Below, piece after piece: positions 28,234-35,722 of a stretch of 64,000 nucleotides of DNA. The position numbers were made by a program, and so were the translations under genes. The notes beneath the pieces were generated by a model, which saw only the letters and a program-made list of their open reading frames with translations, was not told the origin of the DNA and did not search any database. This stretch comes from an uncultured delta proteobacterium. GTDB lineage: Bacteria > Desulfobacterota > Binatia > UBA9968. Within the stretch, counting starts at the first letter, position 1, and each line of letters starts with the position of its first letter. The stretch is from positions 64,001 to 128,000 of the forward strand of contig CAVWLW010000027.1 in NCBI GenBank assembly GCA_963755715.1, given 5' to 3'.

Positions 28234-29274
28234 CTACTGTTCCAATTGGAATCGCCTGTCGGGAGGATATCCCGCCTCGAACTCCACTAATTTCATGCGC
28301 GGGACCGAGGTGTCGCTGCAAACCTTCCGAATGTTTATCAGCTCGGTGGGCCTTTTCCAGTCGCTCTTCGACTCGCAGGTGACTTGCACGCAGGAGGTCT
28401 TCTTCAGCCAGGAGCACACTAGTTTCAGGCGCGGGCCGCACGCGGCTTGCAAACCTTCCGAATATTTAACAGCTCGGTGGGTCTTTTCCAGTTGCTCTTC
28501 GACTCGCAGGAACTTGCGCGCAGGCGGTAGCTGCTTCAGCCAGGAGCACACTCTTAGAGGCGGCCGGCGGCATCCTCCAGCTCGGTCAGATAAAAGACGC
28601 CGAGTTTATTTCGAACCACCCTCTAAGTGCACGCCTGGCACCAGCGTGTAGAAGCTACCGCCGACCTCCAGCAAGCTCAGCACCTGCCCACAAACCCGGA
28701 CAAGTCCTCGGTATAGGTGAATCCGCCGAACACGTCGGTAATAATCTGGAATGTTCCCAGCTCCTCGCGCGAATATTGCCGCAGACGCTTGCCGGAGAGA
28801 TACCGTATCCGGTCGCCGAGGCTCGCGGCCTGCTGCTGCCACTTGTCCGTCCGGCGGTCCTCTATGGAGATCGCGACCGCGCGCGCCTTAGGCCGGATCC
28901 GCCGCACTTTTCACCCGAGCCCCGTCGCCTTCGGGTGCATAGTAGTCCAGTATGGCCTGCCCCTCGCCCGCGCCGATATCCAGCCATCGGTCCGAGCTGC
29001 CAAGCCTGCCGAGAGCGTCGCAGAACCCGGCGGGAAGAAGCTCCGCGTAGTCCGAGAGCCCTCGGTTGGTGACGTAGCCGCGGGGAACATCGGCGCCCCG
29101 GCTGCGGAAGATTTTTTCCTGTTTCGTGAATTCCTCGTCGAGTCGCAGTTGAGCGGGCTCCTGTGGCCAGACAGGTCCGAGCCAAGCGCCTAGCAGGATG
29201 ATGATCAAAACGGCCAGGCGGGTTCCAACGGCCTTCCGTCCTTGTACCGACGAAATAACTGAAGGGATGACCAT
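28234..29274 (-). pseudogene. Exported methyltransferase-like copy 2 (frameshifts and ~130-bp internal duplication)
   Basis: Fragments 28888-29274, 28677-28907 and 28234-28551 are all homologous to copy 1. Confidence 0.7.
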
Positions 29275-29390
29275 TACTTTCTCCTCGCGTTGAAAAAATG
29301 CCGTTCTTGAAAGCGATTCGAGGCTGTTCAAAGCATAGTATAGGCTTCCCCGGCGTCTTCCGGGTTGTCTTCAAACGCGCGCAGCATGCG
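29271..29390 (-). pseudogene. 3' remnant of the alpha/beta hydrolase
   Basis: Encodes ...FEDNPEDA...FKNGIFSTRGE, matching the 3' end of 25890-26861 with an internal deletion. Confidence 0.6.
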
Positions 29391-29483
29391 CTCGTCCTTT
29401 AGTCAAACCAACAAATACGCAAACGTGGCGGCTGCGTCCACCCACAAATCGTCTGGACGAAGCTATGCGCCAGGTTTCATCGC

Positions 29484-30381
29484 CTATGGCTCCAATTGGA
29501 ATCGCCTGCCGGGAGGAGCCCCCGCCATGTACTCCACAAGGTTCGTGCGCGGAACCGCAATGTCGCTGCAAGCCTTGCGAATTTTTATCAACTGCGTGGG
29601 CTCGTCCCAGTCGCTCTTCGACTCGCAGACGATTTTCGCGCAGGTGGTCTGCTTGAGCCAGGAGCACACTTTTATCGGGCGGCTGGCTGCATCCACCAGC
29701 TCGGTCTTATACCAGGTGCCGAGTTTATCCGTGCCATCCTCCAAGTGCACGGCCGGTAACACTGTGTAGAAGGCGCCGCCCATCTCCAGCAAGCTCAGTA
29801 CCTTCTCGAGGAATCGGGATAAATTTTCCGTGTAAGTGAAGCCGCCGTACACGTCGGTGATAATCTGGAATTTTCCAAGCTCATCGCGTGAATATTGGCT
29901 CAGACGTTTGCCGGCGAGATCCCGCATCCGGTCGCCGAGGCTCGCGGCCTGCTGTTTCCACCTGTCTGCCCGGCGGTCCTCTATGGAGATCGCGACCACG
30001 CGCGCCTTGGGGCCGGATCCGCCACACTTTTCAGGAGCCCCATCGCCTTGCGGGTGCATAGTAGTCGAGTATGGCCTGCCCCTCGCCCGCGCCGATATCC
30101 AGCCATCGGCCGAAGCTGCCGAGCTTGCCGAGCGCGTCGCAGAAGCCGGTGGGAAGAACCTCCGCGTAGTCCGAGAGCCCTCGGTTCGTGGTGTAGCTCC
30201 CGGCACCCCGTCTGCGGTAGATTTTTTCCTGCTTGGCGAATTCCTCGTCGATTCGTGGCTGAACGGGTTCCTGTGGCCAGCCAGCTCCCAGACCAAGGGC
30301 CTGCAGGACGATCAGCACAGCCAGGCGCGCTGCCGCGGCTTTCCGTCCTTGTACCGACGAAATAACTGAAGGGATGACCAT
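29484..30381 (-). CDS. Exported methyltransferase-like copy 3 (frameshift near 30050)
   Basis: MVIPSVISSVQG...WLDIGAGEGQA, then ...GRRFQLEP in another frame. Confidence 0.72.
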
Positions 30382-31047: not shown

Positions 31048-31452
31048 TAGTTCGACGTTGCTCACCTCAAAGGACATGCGCAAACAAATCACCGTCATTA
31101 CTCTTTGCGCTGTAGTGTTAGCGCTTTGCGCGCATGCCGCGAATCTTGGAAAAAGCCAAAGAGAATTGTTTCGTCTCCAACTCGATCAAAAGCACGCACC
31201 ATCAAAATCTAACCGGAATCTTCCACCAACAGACTCCTGCCCACTGGGCGAATCCCCTTCGCCTGACGAGCGAATCTCAGAAACTTAAAGCGCCGGGCGG
31301 CTCATTACTTCTGGGGCCACGTCCAAGTTCCTAGTTTCTGCTTGCGGCTAATGCAAAGTTCCGTTTCGCGCTATTGCTAAAGTTGCCAGGCTTCTTTCCC
31401 AATCTCGACAAATAGTCGGCGCGAGTTTCTCCATAAAACAGTACTTTAGTCG

Positions 31453-31468: not shown

Positions 31469-31523
31469 CTATGACTCTTTGCCTACCGAATTAAACGCAT
31501 AAACAGAAAGGAGGTGAAAAAAA

Positions 31524-31985
31524 ATGAAGAAGATTGCTTTAGTTCTGTTCGCGGGAGCGATCGCAATTTATGCTAGCGGCTTTGTCGTCCTACGCGCAGC
31601 CAAGAGGGGGGATGATGTGGCGAGGGAGTGGCGGGTGGGGACCGGGAACACAGTACAATAGAATGTACGATCCAAAGGCGGCGGAAACGATCACCGGCGA
31701 GGTCACGGCGTGGATCGGATCACACCGAACAAAGGGATGAGCGGCGGATTCACATGAACGTGAAAACCGATAAGGAGACGGTCTCTGTGCATCTTGGGCC
31801 GAGTTGGTACCTCGAAAATCAGGACGTGAAGATCGAGCCAAAGACAAGGTCGAGGTGAAAGGCGCCAGAACGACATTTGCCGGAAACCGGCGATCATCGC
31901 GGCGGAGGTGAAGAAGGGAGATGAAGTCTTGAAGCTGCGTGACGACAGCGGCTTCCCGGTGTGGAGCGGCTGGAGACGGCGATAG
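31524..31985 (+). CDS. Secreted small OB-fold-like protein (frameshifted)
   Basis: Signal peptide MKKIALVLFAGAIAI; pieces YNRMYDPKAAETITGEV / HMNVKTDKETVSVHLGPSWYL / IIAAEVKKGDEVLKLRDDSGFPVWSGWRRR. Confidence 0.65.
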
Positions 31986-32075
31986 CACAGGAGGTTAAAA
32001 GAATGGGGAACACGGCGGCGAATTCCGAATCGCATACGGTTTTCGCTGCCGCGGATGTTCGACGGAGAATCTTCT

Positions 32076-32597
32076 ATGAACTGGCTCAAAAAAGAAGAAT
32101 GGTCGTGGTGGCAAGCAGGTTTATTGCTAGGGCTGCTTAACATCGCTGTGTTCTATACTGCGAATTACTACCTGTCGGTTTCGACTACTTTCTCACGCGC
32201 CGCGGGCATGCTGGTTGGGCTGGTCGCGCCGGAACATGTAGCGGCGAACGCTTACTGGCAAAACGTCAAGCCGATTGTCGACTGGCAATTTATGCTCGTG
32301 CTCGGCATCCCGATCGGCGCCTATCTGGCGGCACGGCTGAGTCAAAAAGCCCTTAGCTTTAGCGGCTCGCTTCCCGATATGTGGGTGAGCCGATTCGGCA
32401 CGAGCAATACGCAGCGTTGGGTCGTCGGAATTCTCGGCGGCATTTTCGTCGGTTTCGGCGCGCGCCTGGCCGACGGCTGAACCAGCGGCCACGCCCTCAG
32501 TGGAGGGCTTCAATTGGCAGTGAGCAGTTGGATTTTTCTGATCGCAATGATGATTTCAGGAACGATCATGGCGCGGCTGATTTTTCGGAGGGTGTAG
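32076..32597 (+). CDS. YeeE/YedE thiosulfate-transporter-family subunit 1, putative selenoprotein (UGA 32478-32480)
   Basis: GARLADG-[TGA]-TSGHALSG matches family motif GARLAxGCxSGH; the frame continues 38 codons (a TM helix) to TAG 32595-32597. Confidence 0.88.
32481..32518 (+). promoter_or_regulatory. Putative bacterial SECIS element
   Basis: GCCCTC-AGTG-GAGGGC hairpin with lower GCCA/TGGC stem; apical loop 18 nt after UGA, G at loop position 2. Confidence 0.7.
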
Positions 32598-32599
32598 TT

Positions 32600-33163
32600 A
32601 TGGGTCCACTGGAAATTACCGGTCCGGCGCGCCTCGTGCTCGGACTCGTCACGGGAATTCTGTTCGGCTTTATTCTACAAAAAGCACAAGTGACCAAGTA
32701 TCAGAAGATCGTGTCCTTTTTCCGTTGGACCGATCTGACGGTGCAAAAAGTCATGTTCGCGGCGATCCTGGTTGGCATGGTCGGCGTCTACGCGTTGCAC
32801 GATCTTGGTTTGGTCAATCTCCACATCAAACCGACGCTGCTCGGCGCCAATATTCTCGGCGGCCTGATCTTCGGCGTCGGCATGTTGCTCCTTGGATTTT
32901 GACCCGGCACGTGTGCCGCGGCCTTCGGCGAAGGTCGCCTAGACGGTTTGTTTCGCGGCGTTCTAGGTATTCTGATCGGTGCCGGTCTCTACTCGGAAGT
33001 CTATCCGTTCATCGAGAATAATCTTCTCAAACTTGGCGATTATGGCAAGTTAACGATTCCTTCTTTACTTGGGGCGGGGCCCTGGTCAGTGATTGTGCCC
33101 TTCGTTTTAGTTTTCGGTGCCGTATTTTTTGGCTGTATCAACGTAAAGGTATGTGAAAGATAG
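32600..33163 (+). CDS. YeeE/YedE-family subunit 2, putative selenoprotein (UGA 32900-32902)
   Basis: GILFGFILQKA...GGLIFGVGMLLLGF-[TGA]-PGTCAAAFGEGRLD matches G(Y/F)CPGT; ORF 32948-33163 is in the same frame. Confidence 0.88.
32918..32938 (+). promoter_or_regulatory. Putative bacterial SECIS element
   Basis: GCGGCCTTC-GGC-GAAGGTCGC 9-bp stem (one G-U); loop starts with G, 24 nt after UGA. Confidence 0.65.
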
Positions 33164-33299
33164 GTAGTAGGGCCGCTGAAAACGTTGACGCTGAGGACGG
33201 CGCTGATCGAGTGTACGAAAATACGTCAACGCGAAGTTCGGCGAGCTGCACCGAACCAATTTCGCGTCAAAGCTGATCGATTGTTACGTTACGGGCGTC

Positions 33300-33941
33300 G
33301 ACTTCATGGTGTTAACCGGACAGAGTCGCACACTCGTTACGGTGTTAATTTTTCCAGCAACCTCACGACCAATTTAGTCATGCACGGTGGGTTCGCCGTG
33401 GTCAATAACTCTTGATACAATGGCCATCAACGCAAACGGTCAGACGACCAAGACGCAAGCGGCCGCAACCGGTCAGCTGATCGGGTTGCGTTACTTGAGC
33501 GAGAAGGAGACGACCTATTTTCTCGAATACTATCGCAACGGCGGTGGCTTTAGCCGAGCGCAAATAAAAGACTTCATCACCTTCGTCGATAATAGTTATC
33601 GGACCTTCGTCAATACCGGCAACGACAGCGGACTCATGCGCGCGGCGACACTGCTCGACGGGCCCTATGGCAAGCCCAATCCGGCGCGCCACTATTTATA
33701 TTTTCGCGCAAGCCAAAAGGAGCCGTTTGACATTCTTTATTTCACGCCGGCGATTACATCTATTATGAACTTGAACGACGCAAGCCTAACGGTTATCCCC
33801 GAACTTGCCTACAGCCCAATGACCAACCTTGAGATGCGCTTCCGTACGCCGGTCTTAATTGGAAAAAAAGGTACGGAGTACGGCGAGAAGCAAAACGACT
33901 ATCGAATTGAATTGCGCATTCGCTATTATTTCGGTTTGTAG
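33300..33941 (+). pseudogene. 5'-truncated outer-membrane beta-barrel protein
   Basis: Amphipathic beta strands across two frames, C-terminal RIELRIRYYFGL; no signal peptide or N-terminus visible. Confidence 0.55.
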
Positions 33942-34012
33942 AATGGTCAATGGTCCGGTTCATTGCGGGTCGGTTTATTGCCAAACGAACGCTGTCGTCT
34001 ATCGGAGGTCCT

Positions 34013-35722
34013 ATGAAGGAGCAAAGTGAGTCGCGAACGACTGATTTACCCAGCATGGATGCCCGCCGACGTGTGCTGATTGTCGGTGGTGTCGCGGGGG
34101 GCGCTTCCTGCGCGGCGCGGCTAAGACGGCTCGACGAATCCGTGGAGATCTTGATGATCGATCGCGGTCCGTACGTCTCGTTCGCGAACTGCGGTCTGCC
34201 GTACTACGTCGGCAATGTGATTTCCGATGAACGCAAGCTGCTGGTGGCATCGCGGGAGATGTTTCACGAACGGTTCAATATCGATGTGCAAACCGACACC
34301 GAAGTCATCGGTATCGATCGCAGCATGCGCACGATCACAATGCGCGACGTGCACACCGGCAACACTCGCACGGAACGCTACGACGTGCTTGTCCTGTCGC
34401 CCGGCGCGGCGCCGATCCGTCCCGCGCTGCCGGGCGTGGACCTGCCCGGTGTCTTCGCGGTACGCACGATTCCCGACTCGCGCCGCATTCGTTCCTGGAT
34501 TACGGACCATAACGCCAGGAGTGCCGTTGTCGTCGGTGGCGGATTCATTGGCTTGGAGATGGTCGAGAACTTAATCCATCGCGAGTTGTCGGTGGCAATT
34601 TTAGAGAAACTGCCCCAGGTGATGCCTCCGCTGGATCCCGAGATGGCGGTGCCGCTCATGGAACACCTTGCCGCCAAGGGTGTGCGGCTCCATTTGGGTG
34701 ATGGGCTAGCGCGCATCGAAGAGCGCGCTGGCGCTGGTTTGGTCGTCGTGGCGGAGAGCTGCGCGCGTTTGCCCGCTGATTTAGTTATCCTTGCCATCGG
34801 TGTGCGGCCCGAAACCATGTTGGCCAAGGATGCCGGCCTGGAGATCGGTCCGCGTGGCGGCATTGTCGTTGATGCCCAGATGCGCACTTGCGATCCGAAC
34901 ATCTGGGCCGTGGGCGATGTCGTGGAAGTGCAGGACGTACTTACGGGTCAAGAAACGGTGCTGCCGCTCGCGGGACCAGCCAACCGCCAGGGACGAATCG
35001 CGGCTGAATCGATCGCCGGGCGCGCGCCGCGTTTCCGCGGCGTGCAAGCGACAGCTGTGGTTGGTGTGTTGGGACTGACCGTAGCTTCGACCGGCGCCAG
35101 TGAAAAGGGGCTACGGCGCGCCGGCGTCACGGGCTTTCAAAAAGTCTATCTTCACCCAGGTCATCACGCCGGTTACTATCCCGGTGCACGCGAGATTCAT
35201 CTGAAACTCGTGTTCTCGGTCGCCGACGGCCGCATTCTCGGGGCGCAAGCCGTGGGGTTCGAAGGCGTGGAGAAGCGCATCGATGTCATCGCGACCGCTA
35301 TTCAGTTCAATGGCACGGTTCATGATCTCGCCGAGGCCGAGCTGTGCTACGCGCCGCAGTTTGGTGCCGCAAAAGATCCGGTCAATCTTGCCGGCATGCT
35401 TGGCGAAAACGTTTTGAACGGTGACATGCCCGTGGCCGATTGGTCGGAGCTCGAGCAGACCGATGCTTTGTTGCTCGACGTGCGCGAGGTCGACGAGTTT
35501 AGCCGCGGGCACATCCCCAAGGCGATCAACCTGCCGCTCTCGCAGCTGCGCTCCCGTTACCGTGAGCTGCCGAATGCTCGCGATATCTGGGTGTGCTGCG
35601 CGGTCGGACAGCGCGCGTATTTCGCCACGCGTTTTCTGACCCAGCACGGCTATCGCTCACGGAATCTATCCGGAGGTTATACGACCTACAAAGCTCTGAA
35701 GGCGGCGGGGCTTGCGCCGTGA
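34013..35722 (+). CDS. CoA-disulfide/persulfide reductase with C-terminal rhodanese (CoADR-RHD/Npsr-like)
   Basis: IVGGVAGGASCAARLRR, SFANCGLPY, GGGFIGLE, LCYAPQFG, rhodanese LLDVRE..GHIP..CAVGQRA. Confidence 0.93.
   Translation: MKEQSESRTTDLPSMDARRRVLIVGGVAGGASCAARLRRLDESVEILMIDRGPYVSFANCGLPYYVGNVISDERKLLVASREMFHERFNIDVQTDTEVIGIDRSMRTITMRDVHTGNTRTERYDVLVLSPGAAPIRPALPGVDLPGVFAVRTIPDSRRIRSWITDHNARSAVVVGGGFIGLEMVENLIHRELSVAILEKLPQVMPPLDPEMAVPLMEHLAAKGVRLHLGDGLARIEERAGAGLVVVAESCARLPADLVILAIGVRPETMLAKDAGLEIGPRGGIVVDAQMRTCDPNIWAVGDVVEVQDVLTGQETVLPLAGPANRQGRIAAESIAGRAPRFRGVQATAVVGVLGLTVASTGASEKGLRRAGVTGFQKVYLHPGHHAGYYPGAREIHLKLVFSVADGRILGAQAVGFEGVEKRIDVIATAIQFNGTVHDLAEAELCYAPQFGAAKDPVNLAGMLGENVLNGDMPVADWSELEQTDALLLDVREVDEFSRGHIPKAINLPLSQLRSRYRELPNARDIWVCCAVGQRAYFATRFLTQHGYRSRNLSGGYTTYKALKAAGLAP

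Follow-up and report, generated by a model that had tools for sequence, protein, structure and literature searches.

Two adjacent genes, here called A and B, lie on the plus strand near the middle of a stretch of DNA from an uncultured delta proteobacterium (assembly GCA_963755715.1, contig CAVWLW010000027.1, positions 64,001 to 128,000). The whole stretch, 64,000 nucleotides in length, is referred to as the window, and positions are counted from its first letter. The two genes encode half-size membrane proteins of the YeeE/YedE family. Each harbors one in-frame TGA at the place of an essential cysteine of YeeE, followed by a conserved hairpin at the distance of a selenocysteine insertion sequence (SECIS). 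The text describes the pair, the evidence that both TGA codons are read as selenocysteine (Sec, U), and what such a pair may transport.

The locus

The coding features of the pair are as follows.

32076 to 32597, plus strand: gene A, half-size YeeE/YedE protein of the PmpA or YedE C-half type, 173 amino acids with UGA read as Sec (from the translation and the PF04143 match)
32478 to 32480, plus strand: predicted Sec codon of gene A, U135, in the context GARLADG-U-TSGH
32600 to 33163, plus strand: gene B, half-size YeeE/YedE protein of the PmpB or YedE N-half type, 187 amino acids as written in the window
32900 to 32902, plus strand: predicted Sec codon of gene B, U101, the sole in-frame TGA, in the context GMLLLGF-U-PGTC

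Gene A extends from an ATG at 32076 to a TAG at 32595-32597, and its translation contains no in-frame TGA other than that at 32478-32480. Gene B begins with an ATG at 32600, 2 nt past the stop of gene A, and ends in the frame of the window with a TAG at 33161-33163. The sequence-only reading, an earlier annotation made from the letters of the window, had described two membrane-protein genes 2 nt apart with one TGA each, and both the sequence and the translations bear this out. When read with translation table 11, gene A is cut to 134 residues and gene B to 100, counted from the given ATGs. The same reading had expected standard gene callers to truncate both genes; they do so, as these stubs in the window have matching stubs among the homologues.

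The read-through products were compared with the Pfam family PF04143 (Sulf_transp), for which the gathering cut-off is 27 bits. Both products lie above it, gene A with 88.2 bits (9.5e-25) over profile positions 171-307 and gene B with 58.1 bits (1.4e-15) over positions 12-147. Because the matches cover these two separate parts of the profile, genes A and B are each identified as one half of a YeeE/YedE protein. The pair is the sole clear Sulf_transp locus found by this profile in the source genome, and none of the other read-through open reading frames (ORFs) across the window resembles a selenoprotein.

The UGA codons and the essential cysteines of YeeE

Both UGA codons align with conserved cysteines. 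The A site is Cys in 12 of 12 natural full-length homologues aligned and the B site in 15 of 15, and in DNA alignments of both genes the TGA stands opposite TGC or TGT at the same codon. A Protein Data Bank search connects these positions with a protein of known structure, the YeeE of Spirochaeta thermophila (StYeeE). Residues 239-330 of StYeeE align with gene A, placing U135 on C293, and residues 4-126 align with gene B, placing U101 on C91; the E-values of these alignments are just 1e-6 to 5e-6. The third StYeeE cysteine, C22, corresponds to Thr32 in gene B. Function in StYeeE is described as lost in the C91A and C293A variants and retained in C22A (PMC7449682), and the separation of C293 and C91 along the pore is given as 8.6 Å (PMC11073785). 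In the model set out for YeeE, the essential cysteines steer thiosulfate via S-H-S hydrogen bonds (PMC7449682).

The frames beyond the UGA codons, which had been noted earlier as continuing with family-like sequence, are conserved in relatives in both DNA and protein alignments, with no decay. The 38 codons of gene A and the 86 of gene B that follow the UGAs align with homologues as protein, and the DNA varies at third bases and synonymously. Homologues of gene A of 173 amino acids are present among the matches. Gene callers have nevertheless hit the same stop at the same place repeatedly, as is evident from the truncated homologues: among the matches listed, 58 of 120 A homologues are exactly 134 amino acids long, ending at the UGA, and all seven of these that were aligned stop at G134, directly before the Sec site. 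Likewise, both of the truncated 124-residue B homologues that were aligned end at F100. By computation, the two UGAs are read-through codons rather than stops or errors, and each occupies the place of an essential YeeE cysteine, that of gene A at C293 and that of gene B at C91.

The motif of gene B contains a further cysteine. Residues 101-105 (window 32900-32914) read U-P-G-T-C, with the second Cys four residues past the Sec. It is kept in every aligned relative of at least 56% identity, in Sec and Cys forms both, and is Ala or Ser in more distant relatives. This residue may serve as the selenenyl-sulfide partner of the gene B Sec.

Conservation of the UGA codons among relatives

Within the source genus, a close copy of the pair was found in three of 25 genomes, a patchy distribution. 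One of these genomes, G018, is 96% identical over the pair and keeps both TGAs amid synonymous changes; another, G008, is 84% identical and has TGT at both sites. In the Cys/Cys copy of G008 (locus L026, on G008:C63), codon 11 of gene A is TAG where the relatives all have Trp (W11), reflecting either a sequence error or an inactivated gene.

A broader set came from named metagenome-assembled genomes (MAGs), whose loci are 62-96% identical to the pair; 15 are readable at the A site and 14 reach the B site. TGA stands at the A site in 12 of the 15 and at the B site in 12 of the 14. Eleven of 14 loci are Sec/Sec (L062-65, L067-72 and L074), two are Cys/Cys (L066 and L075), and one combines Cys in A with Sec in B (L076). 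The MAGs are labelled delta proteobacterium, Deltaproteobacteria, Binatia, Methylomirabilota, Rokubacteria, NC10 and Solibacteraceae.

Metagenomes gave a similar picture, with counts taken over the best 80 of 212 relatives. One of the search patterns spelled Cys, and any bias of the locus set is therefore towards Cys forms. The B codon is TGA in 72 of the 80 and TGY in eight. At the A site, TGA was read in 50 and TGY in 18, with the codon outside the locus in 11 and unmatched in one. The 68 loci that are readable at both sites comprise 50 Sec/Sec pairs, 10 with Cys in A and Sec in B, eight Cys/Cys pairs, and none with Sec in A and Cys in B.

More distant relatives carry the two sites separately. 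Across 400 other genomes of the source phylum there are 99 A-type matches of 31-52% identity, 39 of which contain one TGA, and in all 39 of these loci the adjoining B gene is without a stop. In L034, the one of the 39 in which the position of the TGA was read, it falls at the same A site, as GUPSG. A separate group of eight distant B-type matches has a TGA in B and none in A; in L118, the one of the eight that was read for position, the motif is GGY-U-PGTS, beside an A protein with GCTSG. One match of the phylum sample, in G224, has two TGAs. Because distant loci exist with TGA in A only or in B only, it would appear that each site has turned to Sec independently in some lineages. The double-Sec form, in turn, is that of one subfamily, spread over several phyla and patchy in the source genus. 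The second locus of G367 was considered as a Sec form and rejected: its B-like TGA lies at a Gly position, away from the Cys site, and its A-like TAA is a plain stop codon.

SECIS-like hairpins

Each UGA is followed by a short stem-loop.

32493 to 32508, plus strand: SECIS-like hairpin of gene A, 6-bp stem (32493-32498 with 32503-32508) and loop AGUG (32499-32502), from RNAalifold
32920 to 32936, plus strand: SECIS-like hairpin of gene B, 7-bp conserved stem (32920-32926 with 32930-32936) and loop GGC (32927-32929)

In the window, the stem of hairpin B extends to 9 bp (32918-32938). From the UGA, it is 12 nt to the start of hairpin A and 18 nt to its loop, and 17 nt and 24 nt, respectively, for hairpin B; the loop distances had been given correctly in the sequence-only reading, as is found on folding the window sequence.

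The hairpins are associated with the presence of Sec. In the Sec forms of hairpin B, 99.0% of cells are paired (71 metagenome sequences, 41 distinct), compared with 32-59% in controls in which the partners were slid, and in the Cys forms the value is 66.1% (11 sequences, 8 distinct). For hairpin A, the Sec forms are 88.7% paired (50 sequences, 37 distinct) and the Cys forms 61.5% (22 sequences, 16 distinct). The observed values were reached by none of 500 shuffles. Base changes that preserve pairing are seen in both: pair 31/39 of hairpin B is UA in 33 and CG in eight of the 41 distinct Sec forms, with a separate change from G-C to G-U in nine, and pair 23/36 of hairpin A is CG in 18 and GC in 17 of the 37 distinct Sec forms. 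An earlier covariation test of hairpin B with 13 sequences was not significant, with 56 of 500 shuffles reaching the observed value; the signal is clear with 71 sequences. Position 24/35 of hairpin A is paired in only about half of the Sec forms and a register shifted by +1 suits the remainder, so that this stem has two registers. By computation, each UGA has a conserved hairpin at SECIS distance. The earlier claim that each TGA is accompanied by a SECIS finds its support in relatives, where the hairpins are kept in Sec forms and have decayed in Cys forms.

Selenocysteine machinery in the source genome

The source assembly comprises 76 contigs with a total of 7.4 Mb, is 93.6% complete and encodes the machinery for Sec insertion. 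A tRNA-Sec was found with RF01852 (76.7 bits, above the Rfam cut-off) and with ARAGORN, as SeC(tca). A selA-selB-selD cluster lies on contig C3, with scores of 617 bits for selA and 416 bits for selB. The selD gene is found as two adjacent pieces of 213 and 155 bits, covering profile positions 1-125 and 119-310 (G000:C3:71086-72013; L018 and L019). The first of these pieces carries one TGA, and selD has a frame break in the source assembly; it is probably itself a selenoprotein gene.

Other carriers of the pair are mostly equipped in the same way, as selA is present in three of the four Sec/Sec carrier genomes tested and in one Cys/Cys carrier (L066). The fourth, G444 (locus L071), is a MAG labelled Solibacteraceae with a Sec/Sec pair, in which the best selA match scores 25 bits. 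This genome may be incomplete, or the contig mis-binned.

Independent sequence data and assembly errors

The stretch was found in 20 public runs of 11 studies, from soil, rhizosphere, mine drainage and sediment, with six RNA libraries, although occurrence in an RNA library does not equal transcription. Four of the runs (X1, X10, X15 and X17) were aligned, all as contigs rather than raw reads. A single DNA contig of 1235 nt from X10, over 32133-33130, spans both sites and has 30 differences from the window, none of which is A>C or A>T. In contigs from X1, X15 (record 16, an RNA library) and X17 (record 20, an RNA library), the TGA at 32478 is unchanged, all the listed differences being elsewhere; 17 contig differences lie outside those listed, and 32900 is not covered by X1 or X17. 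In X15 there is one A>C change, the place of which was not located, and record 18 covers 32900, so a TGC is possible there in X15. The TGAs are thus kept in contigs from independent runs wherever these cover them, with the possible exception of X15 at 32900.

The errors seen in the assembly are indels, as had been said from the window sequence, rather than substitutions: selD is split, the gene upstream of the pair is in three frames and the end of gene B appears to be shifted. The last of these can be followed to a run of T.

33125 to 33130, plus strand: T-run, one T short compared with relatives (from the G018 sequence, the X10 contig, which has a loose end at 33130, and the C-termini of homologues)

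As written in the window, gene B ends with AVFFGCINVKVCER and a stop (33125-33163), giving the tail GCINVKVCER, whereas relatives end in W-[LIF]-[DE]-[RK]-K-G-L. The addition of one T, as found in G018 and in the X10 contig, makes the window read FFWLYQRKGM, with a TGA stop at 33154-33156. Gene B as written in the window has thus probably left its frame for the final 13 codons, and the true end of the gene is probably this TGA. The difference in the T-run is probably a frameshift for which an assembly error in homopolymer length is more likely than a real change.

Relationship to known systems

The organization of the pair mirrors that of PmpA/PmpB of Serratia sp. ATCC 39006 and YedE1/YedE2 of Cupriavidus pinatubonensis and Sinorhizobium meliloti, which are likewise encoded by two adjoining half-size genes. 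Common to all, as far as these systems are described, is a gene order in which the C-half type precedes the N-half type, with one conserved site in each, equivalent to C293 and C91 respectively. PmpA is described as matching the C-terminal half with Cys293 and PmpB the N-terminal half with Cys91, and the two are proposed to form a heterodimer (PMC11582611). For YedE1E2, uptake of zero-valent sulfur by a protein complex is described (PMC10812762). By its gene halves and their order, the pair classifies as a split transporter of the PmpAB/YedE1E2 type, these systems being known here from their descriptions. Unlike them, it has Sec codons with SECIS hairpins in place of both conserved cysteines. 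It is also longer, at 173 and about 185 amino acids compared with roughly 130-140 in PmpAB and YedE1E2, and gene B has the additional Cys four residues after the Sec, a feature of the subfamily, PmpAB and YedE1E2 being compared by description only.

StYeeE, or TsuA (PDB 6LEO, 6LEP and 8J4C), belongs to the same Pfam family, and A and B together span its two repeats. However, StYeeE is one chain of 330 amino acids with a central extra helix and C22 as a third cysteine, whereas the pair is split and has Thr at the C22 place. Of the three cysteines by which TsuA is recognized (C22, C91 and C293), only the places of C91 and C293 are kept, as Sec. StYeeE further requires the TusA-like protein YeeD, and because no TusA-family gene was found in the source genome, the YeeE-YeeD route for thiosulfate is not supported. 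The YedE/FdhT selenium metabolism membrane protein is of the same superfamily and has a link to selenium, but it is full length and by definition not itself a selenoprotein.

Review tables (PMC13188914) already contain a YeeE/YedE selenoprotein that has a single Sec, in the motif GUxSG. Gene A fits this motif (G134-U135-T136-S137-G138) and gene B, with F-U-P-G-T, does not. In the tables as far as they are cited here, the catalogued protein has one Sec and no second subunit, in contrast to the pair with its Sec in both subunits.

Proposed mechanism and alternatives

We consider it likely that the two genes encode a two-subunit transporter of the YeeE/YedE family in which the conserved pore cysteine of each subunit is replaced by Sec. 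In such a system, SelB and the tRNA-Sec would insert Sec at both sites. The products of genes A and B would then pair to rebuild the pseudo-symmetric YeeE fold, as is suggested by the 2-nt gap between the genes and the pseudo-symmetry of YeeE itself. Two selenols would come to stand in line at the narrow center of the pore, where the matching cysteines of StYeeE are 8.6 Å apart. The substrate would be a reactive sulfur species, either sulfane or zero-valent sulfur or thiosulfate, and the sulfur could be handed from selenol to selenol by transient Se-S bonds, which would be made and broken faster by Sec than by Cys. Sulfane sulfur and thiosulfate are the most likely cargo. This explanation is at its weakest with respect to the substrate and to the direction of transport.

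Other known cases in which Sec naturally replaces Cys concern cysteines that are redox-active or nucleophilic. Because Sec stands at both essential YeeE cysteine positions, and is widely kept across many soil and sediment lineages, the replacement argues for covalent chemistry in the pore. One form that this might take is a chalcogen relay, in which the selenols, stacked a few Å apart, pass sulfane sulfur or selenium species across the membrane in adducts of the Se-S or Se-Se kind, and in which a redox gate is perhaps provided by a diselenide or by the selenenyl-sulfide of U-x-x-x-C. This relay is put forward tentatively, and we regard it as more doubtful than the architecture of the transporter.

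A number of results weigh against reading the pair as a double-Sec transporter of sulfur. With respect to family assignment, the scores of A and B lie far below the cut-offs of the NCBIfam models for TsuA (NF052577, 45.3 and 50.1 bits against 400; NF041049, 27.7 and 32.7 against 645) and for YedE/FdhT (NF033796, 38.2 and 34.3 against 350), as does that of B for TIGR04112 (29.9 against 200). A search of the source genome, at its 93.6% completeness, with PF01206 (TusA/YeeD) found none, in a test where controls were positive in 10 of 14 genomes. Neighboring genes vary among relatives, and hence the context says little about the substrate. The C-terminus of gene B is seemingly frameshifted in the source assembly, and selA was not found in G444, a MAG that may be incomplete. 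The remaining points concern the hairpins. The folding energies of the two window hairpins are no better than those of shuffles (z of -0.58 and -0.83), and because of this the energy of the single sequence was dropped as evidence. An Rfam scan of 31500-34000 at E-values up to 10 gave no SECIS family match, only one chance-level snoRNA. Just one pair per hairpin is truly compensatory, and hairpin A slid by +1 pairs nearly as well, at 82%. Finally, alignments built with a covariance model lean towards the structure of the model, and many of the metagenome loci are close kin, with 41 distinct sequences among 71.

Among the alternatives to a sulfur transporter, a selenium-specific importer of the YedE/FdhT kind survives best, although we hold it to be unlikely. 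Such a protein would bring in selenite, selenide or Se-S species for SelD, with its own Sec binding the selenium. The weak matches to NF033796 (9.4e-10 for A and 1.4e-08 for B) and TIGR04112 (3e-07 for B) point in this direction, as does the fact that the carriers are mostly Sec-decoding, with selA in three of the four Sec/Sec carriers. In addition, a YedE-like protein is described as tied to selenium transport in Methanococcus maripaludis (PMC11582611). Nevertheless, membership of these selenium-linked families is at odds with the scores (38 and 34 bits where the cut-off is 350, and 29.9 where it is 200), and the pair is on contig C27 rather than with selA, selB and selD on C3. Furthermore, a search of the genome revealed no YedF/TusA-like gene, the same subfamily includes Cys/Cys versions, among them that of L066, whose genome carries selA, and the split relatives that have been tested are described as carrying sulfur (PMC10812762).

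A second alternative is that bulk transport is not the main role of the pair, which would instead be a sensor or conduit by which a sulfur signal reaches a cytoplasmic regulator, a role that has been proposed for SoxT1B. YeeE-like SoxT proteins are described as importing sulfur for signal transduction (PMC11582611), and in L065 a gene for a Fur-family regulator lies directly downstream of the pair. Yet no regulator adjoins the pair in the window and no SoxR/BigR-type gene is present in the neighborhoods examined, which makes this role improbable. The last alternative, that the TGAs act as normal stop codons or stem from assembly error or pseudogene decay, with the downstream frames untranslated, could draw on the frame errors of the assembly (selD, the upstream gene and the 3' end of gene B) and on the 134-residue products called elsewhere by gene callers, but is hardly credible given that both TGAs are found again in independent genomes, in metagenomes and in contigs of independent runs, that the errors seen are indels and not substitutions, that the downstream frames are conserved as protein with synonymous third-base changes, that homologues have Cys at the same columns, and that the hairpins track the TGA.

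Novelty and significance

The sequence-only reading had left undecided whether the subfamily was already described, and the answer is divided. The A-type Sec with GUxSG is catalogued and split pairs such as PmpAB and YedE1E2 are known, as far as the cited sources go; the B-type Sec and the double-Sec pair were not found. Sec at the PmpB/C91 site, or in both subunits, has no mention in the review tables or in the main texts of PMC2398784, PMC5029168 and PMC12013277, although supplements and recent papers (e.g. Deng et al. 2026, Cell Rep) may list it. Reviews cite PMC2398784 and PMC5029168 for the YeeE/YedE selenoprotein, but the family is not named in the main text of either, and the YeeE/YedE selenoprotein is not mentioned in PMC12013277. 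A literature search that joined DUF395 with selenocysteine returned no paper. The B-type Sec form (F/Y-U-P-G-T) and the double-Sec pair are apparently new, as a variant of a family in which the A-type Sec is known.

The selenoprotein catalogue would thereby gain a second Sec site, together with a putative complex of two selenoproteins, within a family that it already contains. Natural Sec/Sec, Cys/Sec and Cys/Cys pairs permit a direct comparison of pore mechanism. If the chalcogen relay were true, no transporter before this pair would have been known to operate via selenocysteine chemistry, and the essential cysteines across the YeeE/YedE family would be nucleophiles, not hydrogen-bond donors. 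The transporter is also under-annotated in soil metagenomes because gene callers truncate these genes at the UGA, as the 134-residue stubs among the listed A homologues illustrate.

Neighboring genes

Two genes flank the pair on the same strand.

31524 to 31985, plus strand: upstream neighbor, copy of a gene for a MamS-like secreted protein, in three frames (ORF pieces)
33950 to 35722, plus strand: CoA-disulfide-reductase-like flavoprotein fused to rhodanese, 787 nt downstream (Pyr_redox_2 4.8e-59, Rhodanese 4.8e-17)

The product of the downstream gene scores 460 bits with TIGR03385, under the cut-off of 578.8. Its link to the pair is not conserved, because the nearest relative, L062, has no ORF of at least 100 amino acids downstream on the strand of the pair, and the neighbors in L070 differ from those of the window. 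Directly upstream of the pair in L069 is an ORF that matches FCSD (a sulfide dehydrogenase), cytochrome c and metallo-beta-lactamase. This sulfur-related context, of the flavoprotein-rhodanese gene in the window and the ORF in L069, is only suggestive as support for a sulfur cargo.

Intact copies of the upstream gene, encoding 155 amino acids, are found at L063:1934-2401 and L065:1875-2342 and are 82% identical to each other; the match of the upstream protein to MamS (NF040991) is 6e-06, far under the cut-off. The gene is also in three frames in L062, the 96% relative (L062:1935-2408), with breaks at apparently similar places, and this shared feature could be a common pseudogene or a recurring assembly error. 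Upstream of its MamS-like gene, L062 has an OsmC-like gene of 210 amino acids (L062:1210-1842), and the window retains at 31058-31334 a leftover piece that matches the C-terminal part of this gene (MPRILEKAKENCFVSNSIKS...).

Further upstream, on the minus strand at 28888-30381, are two adjoining ORFs, neither of which has a Pfam match. They share a near-identical N-terminal stretch (MVIPSVISSVQGRKA...WPQEP...DEEF.KQEKI.R.RGA...) and resemble tandem paralogues or a segmental duplication.

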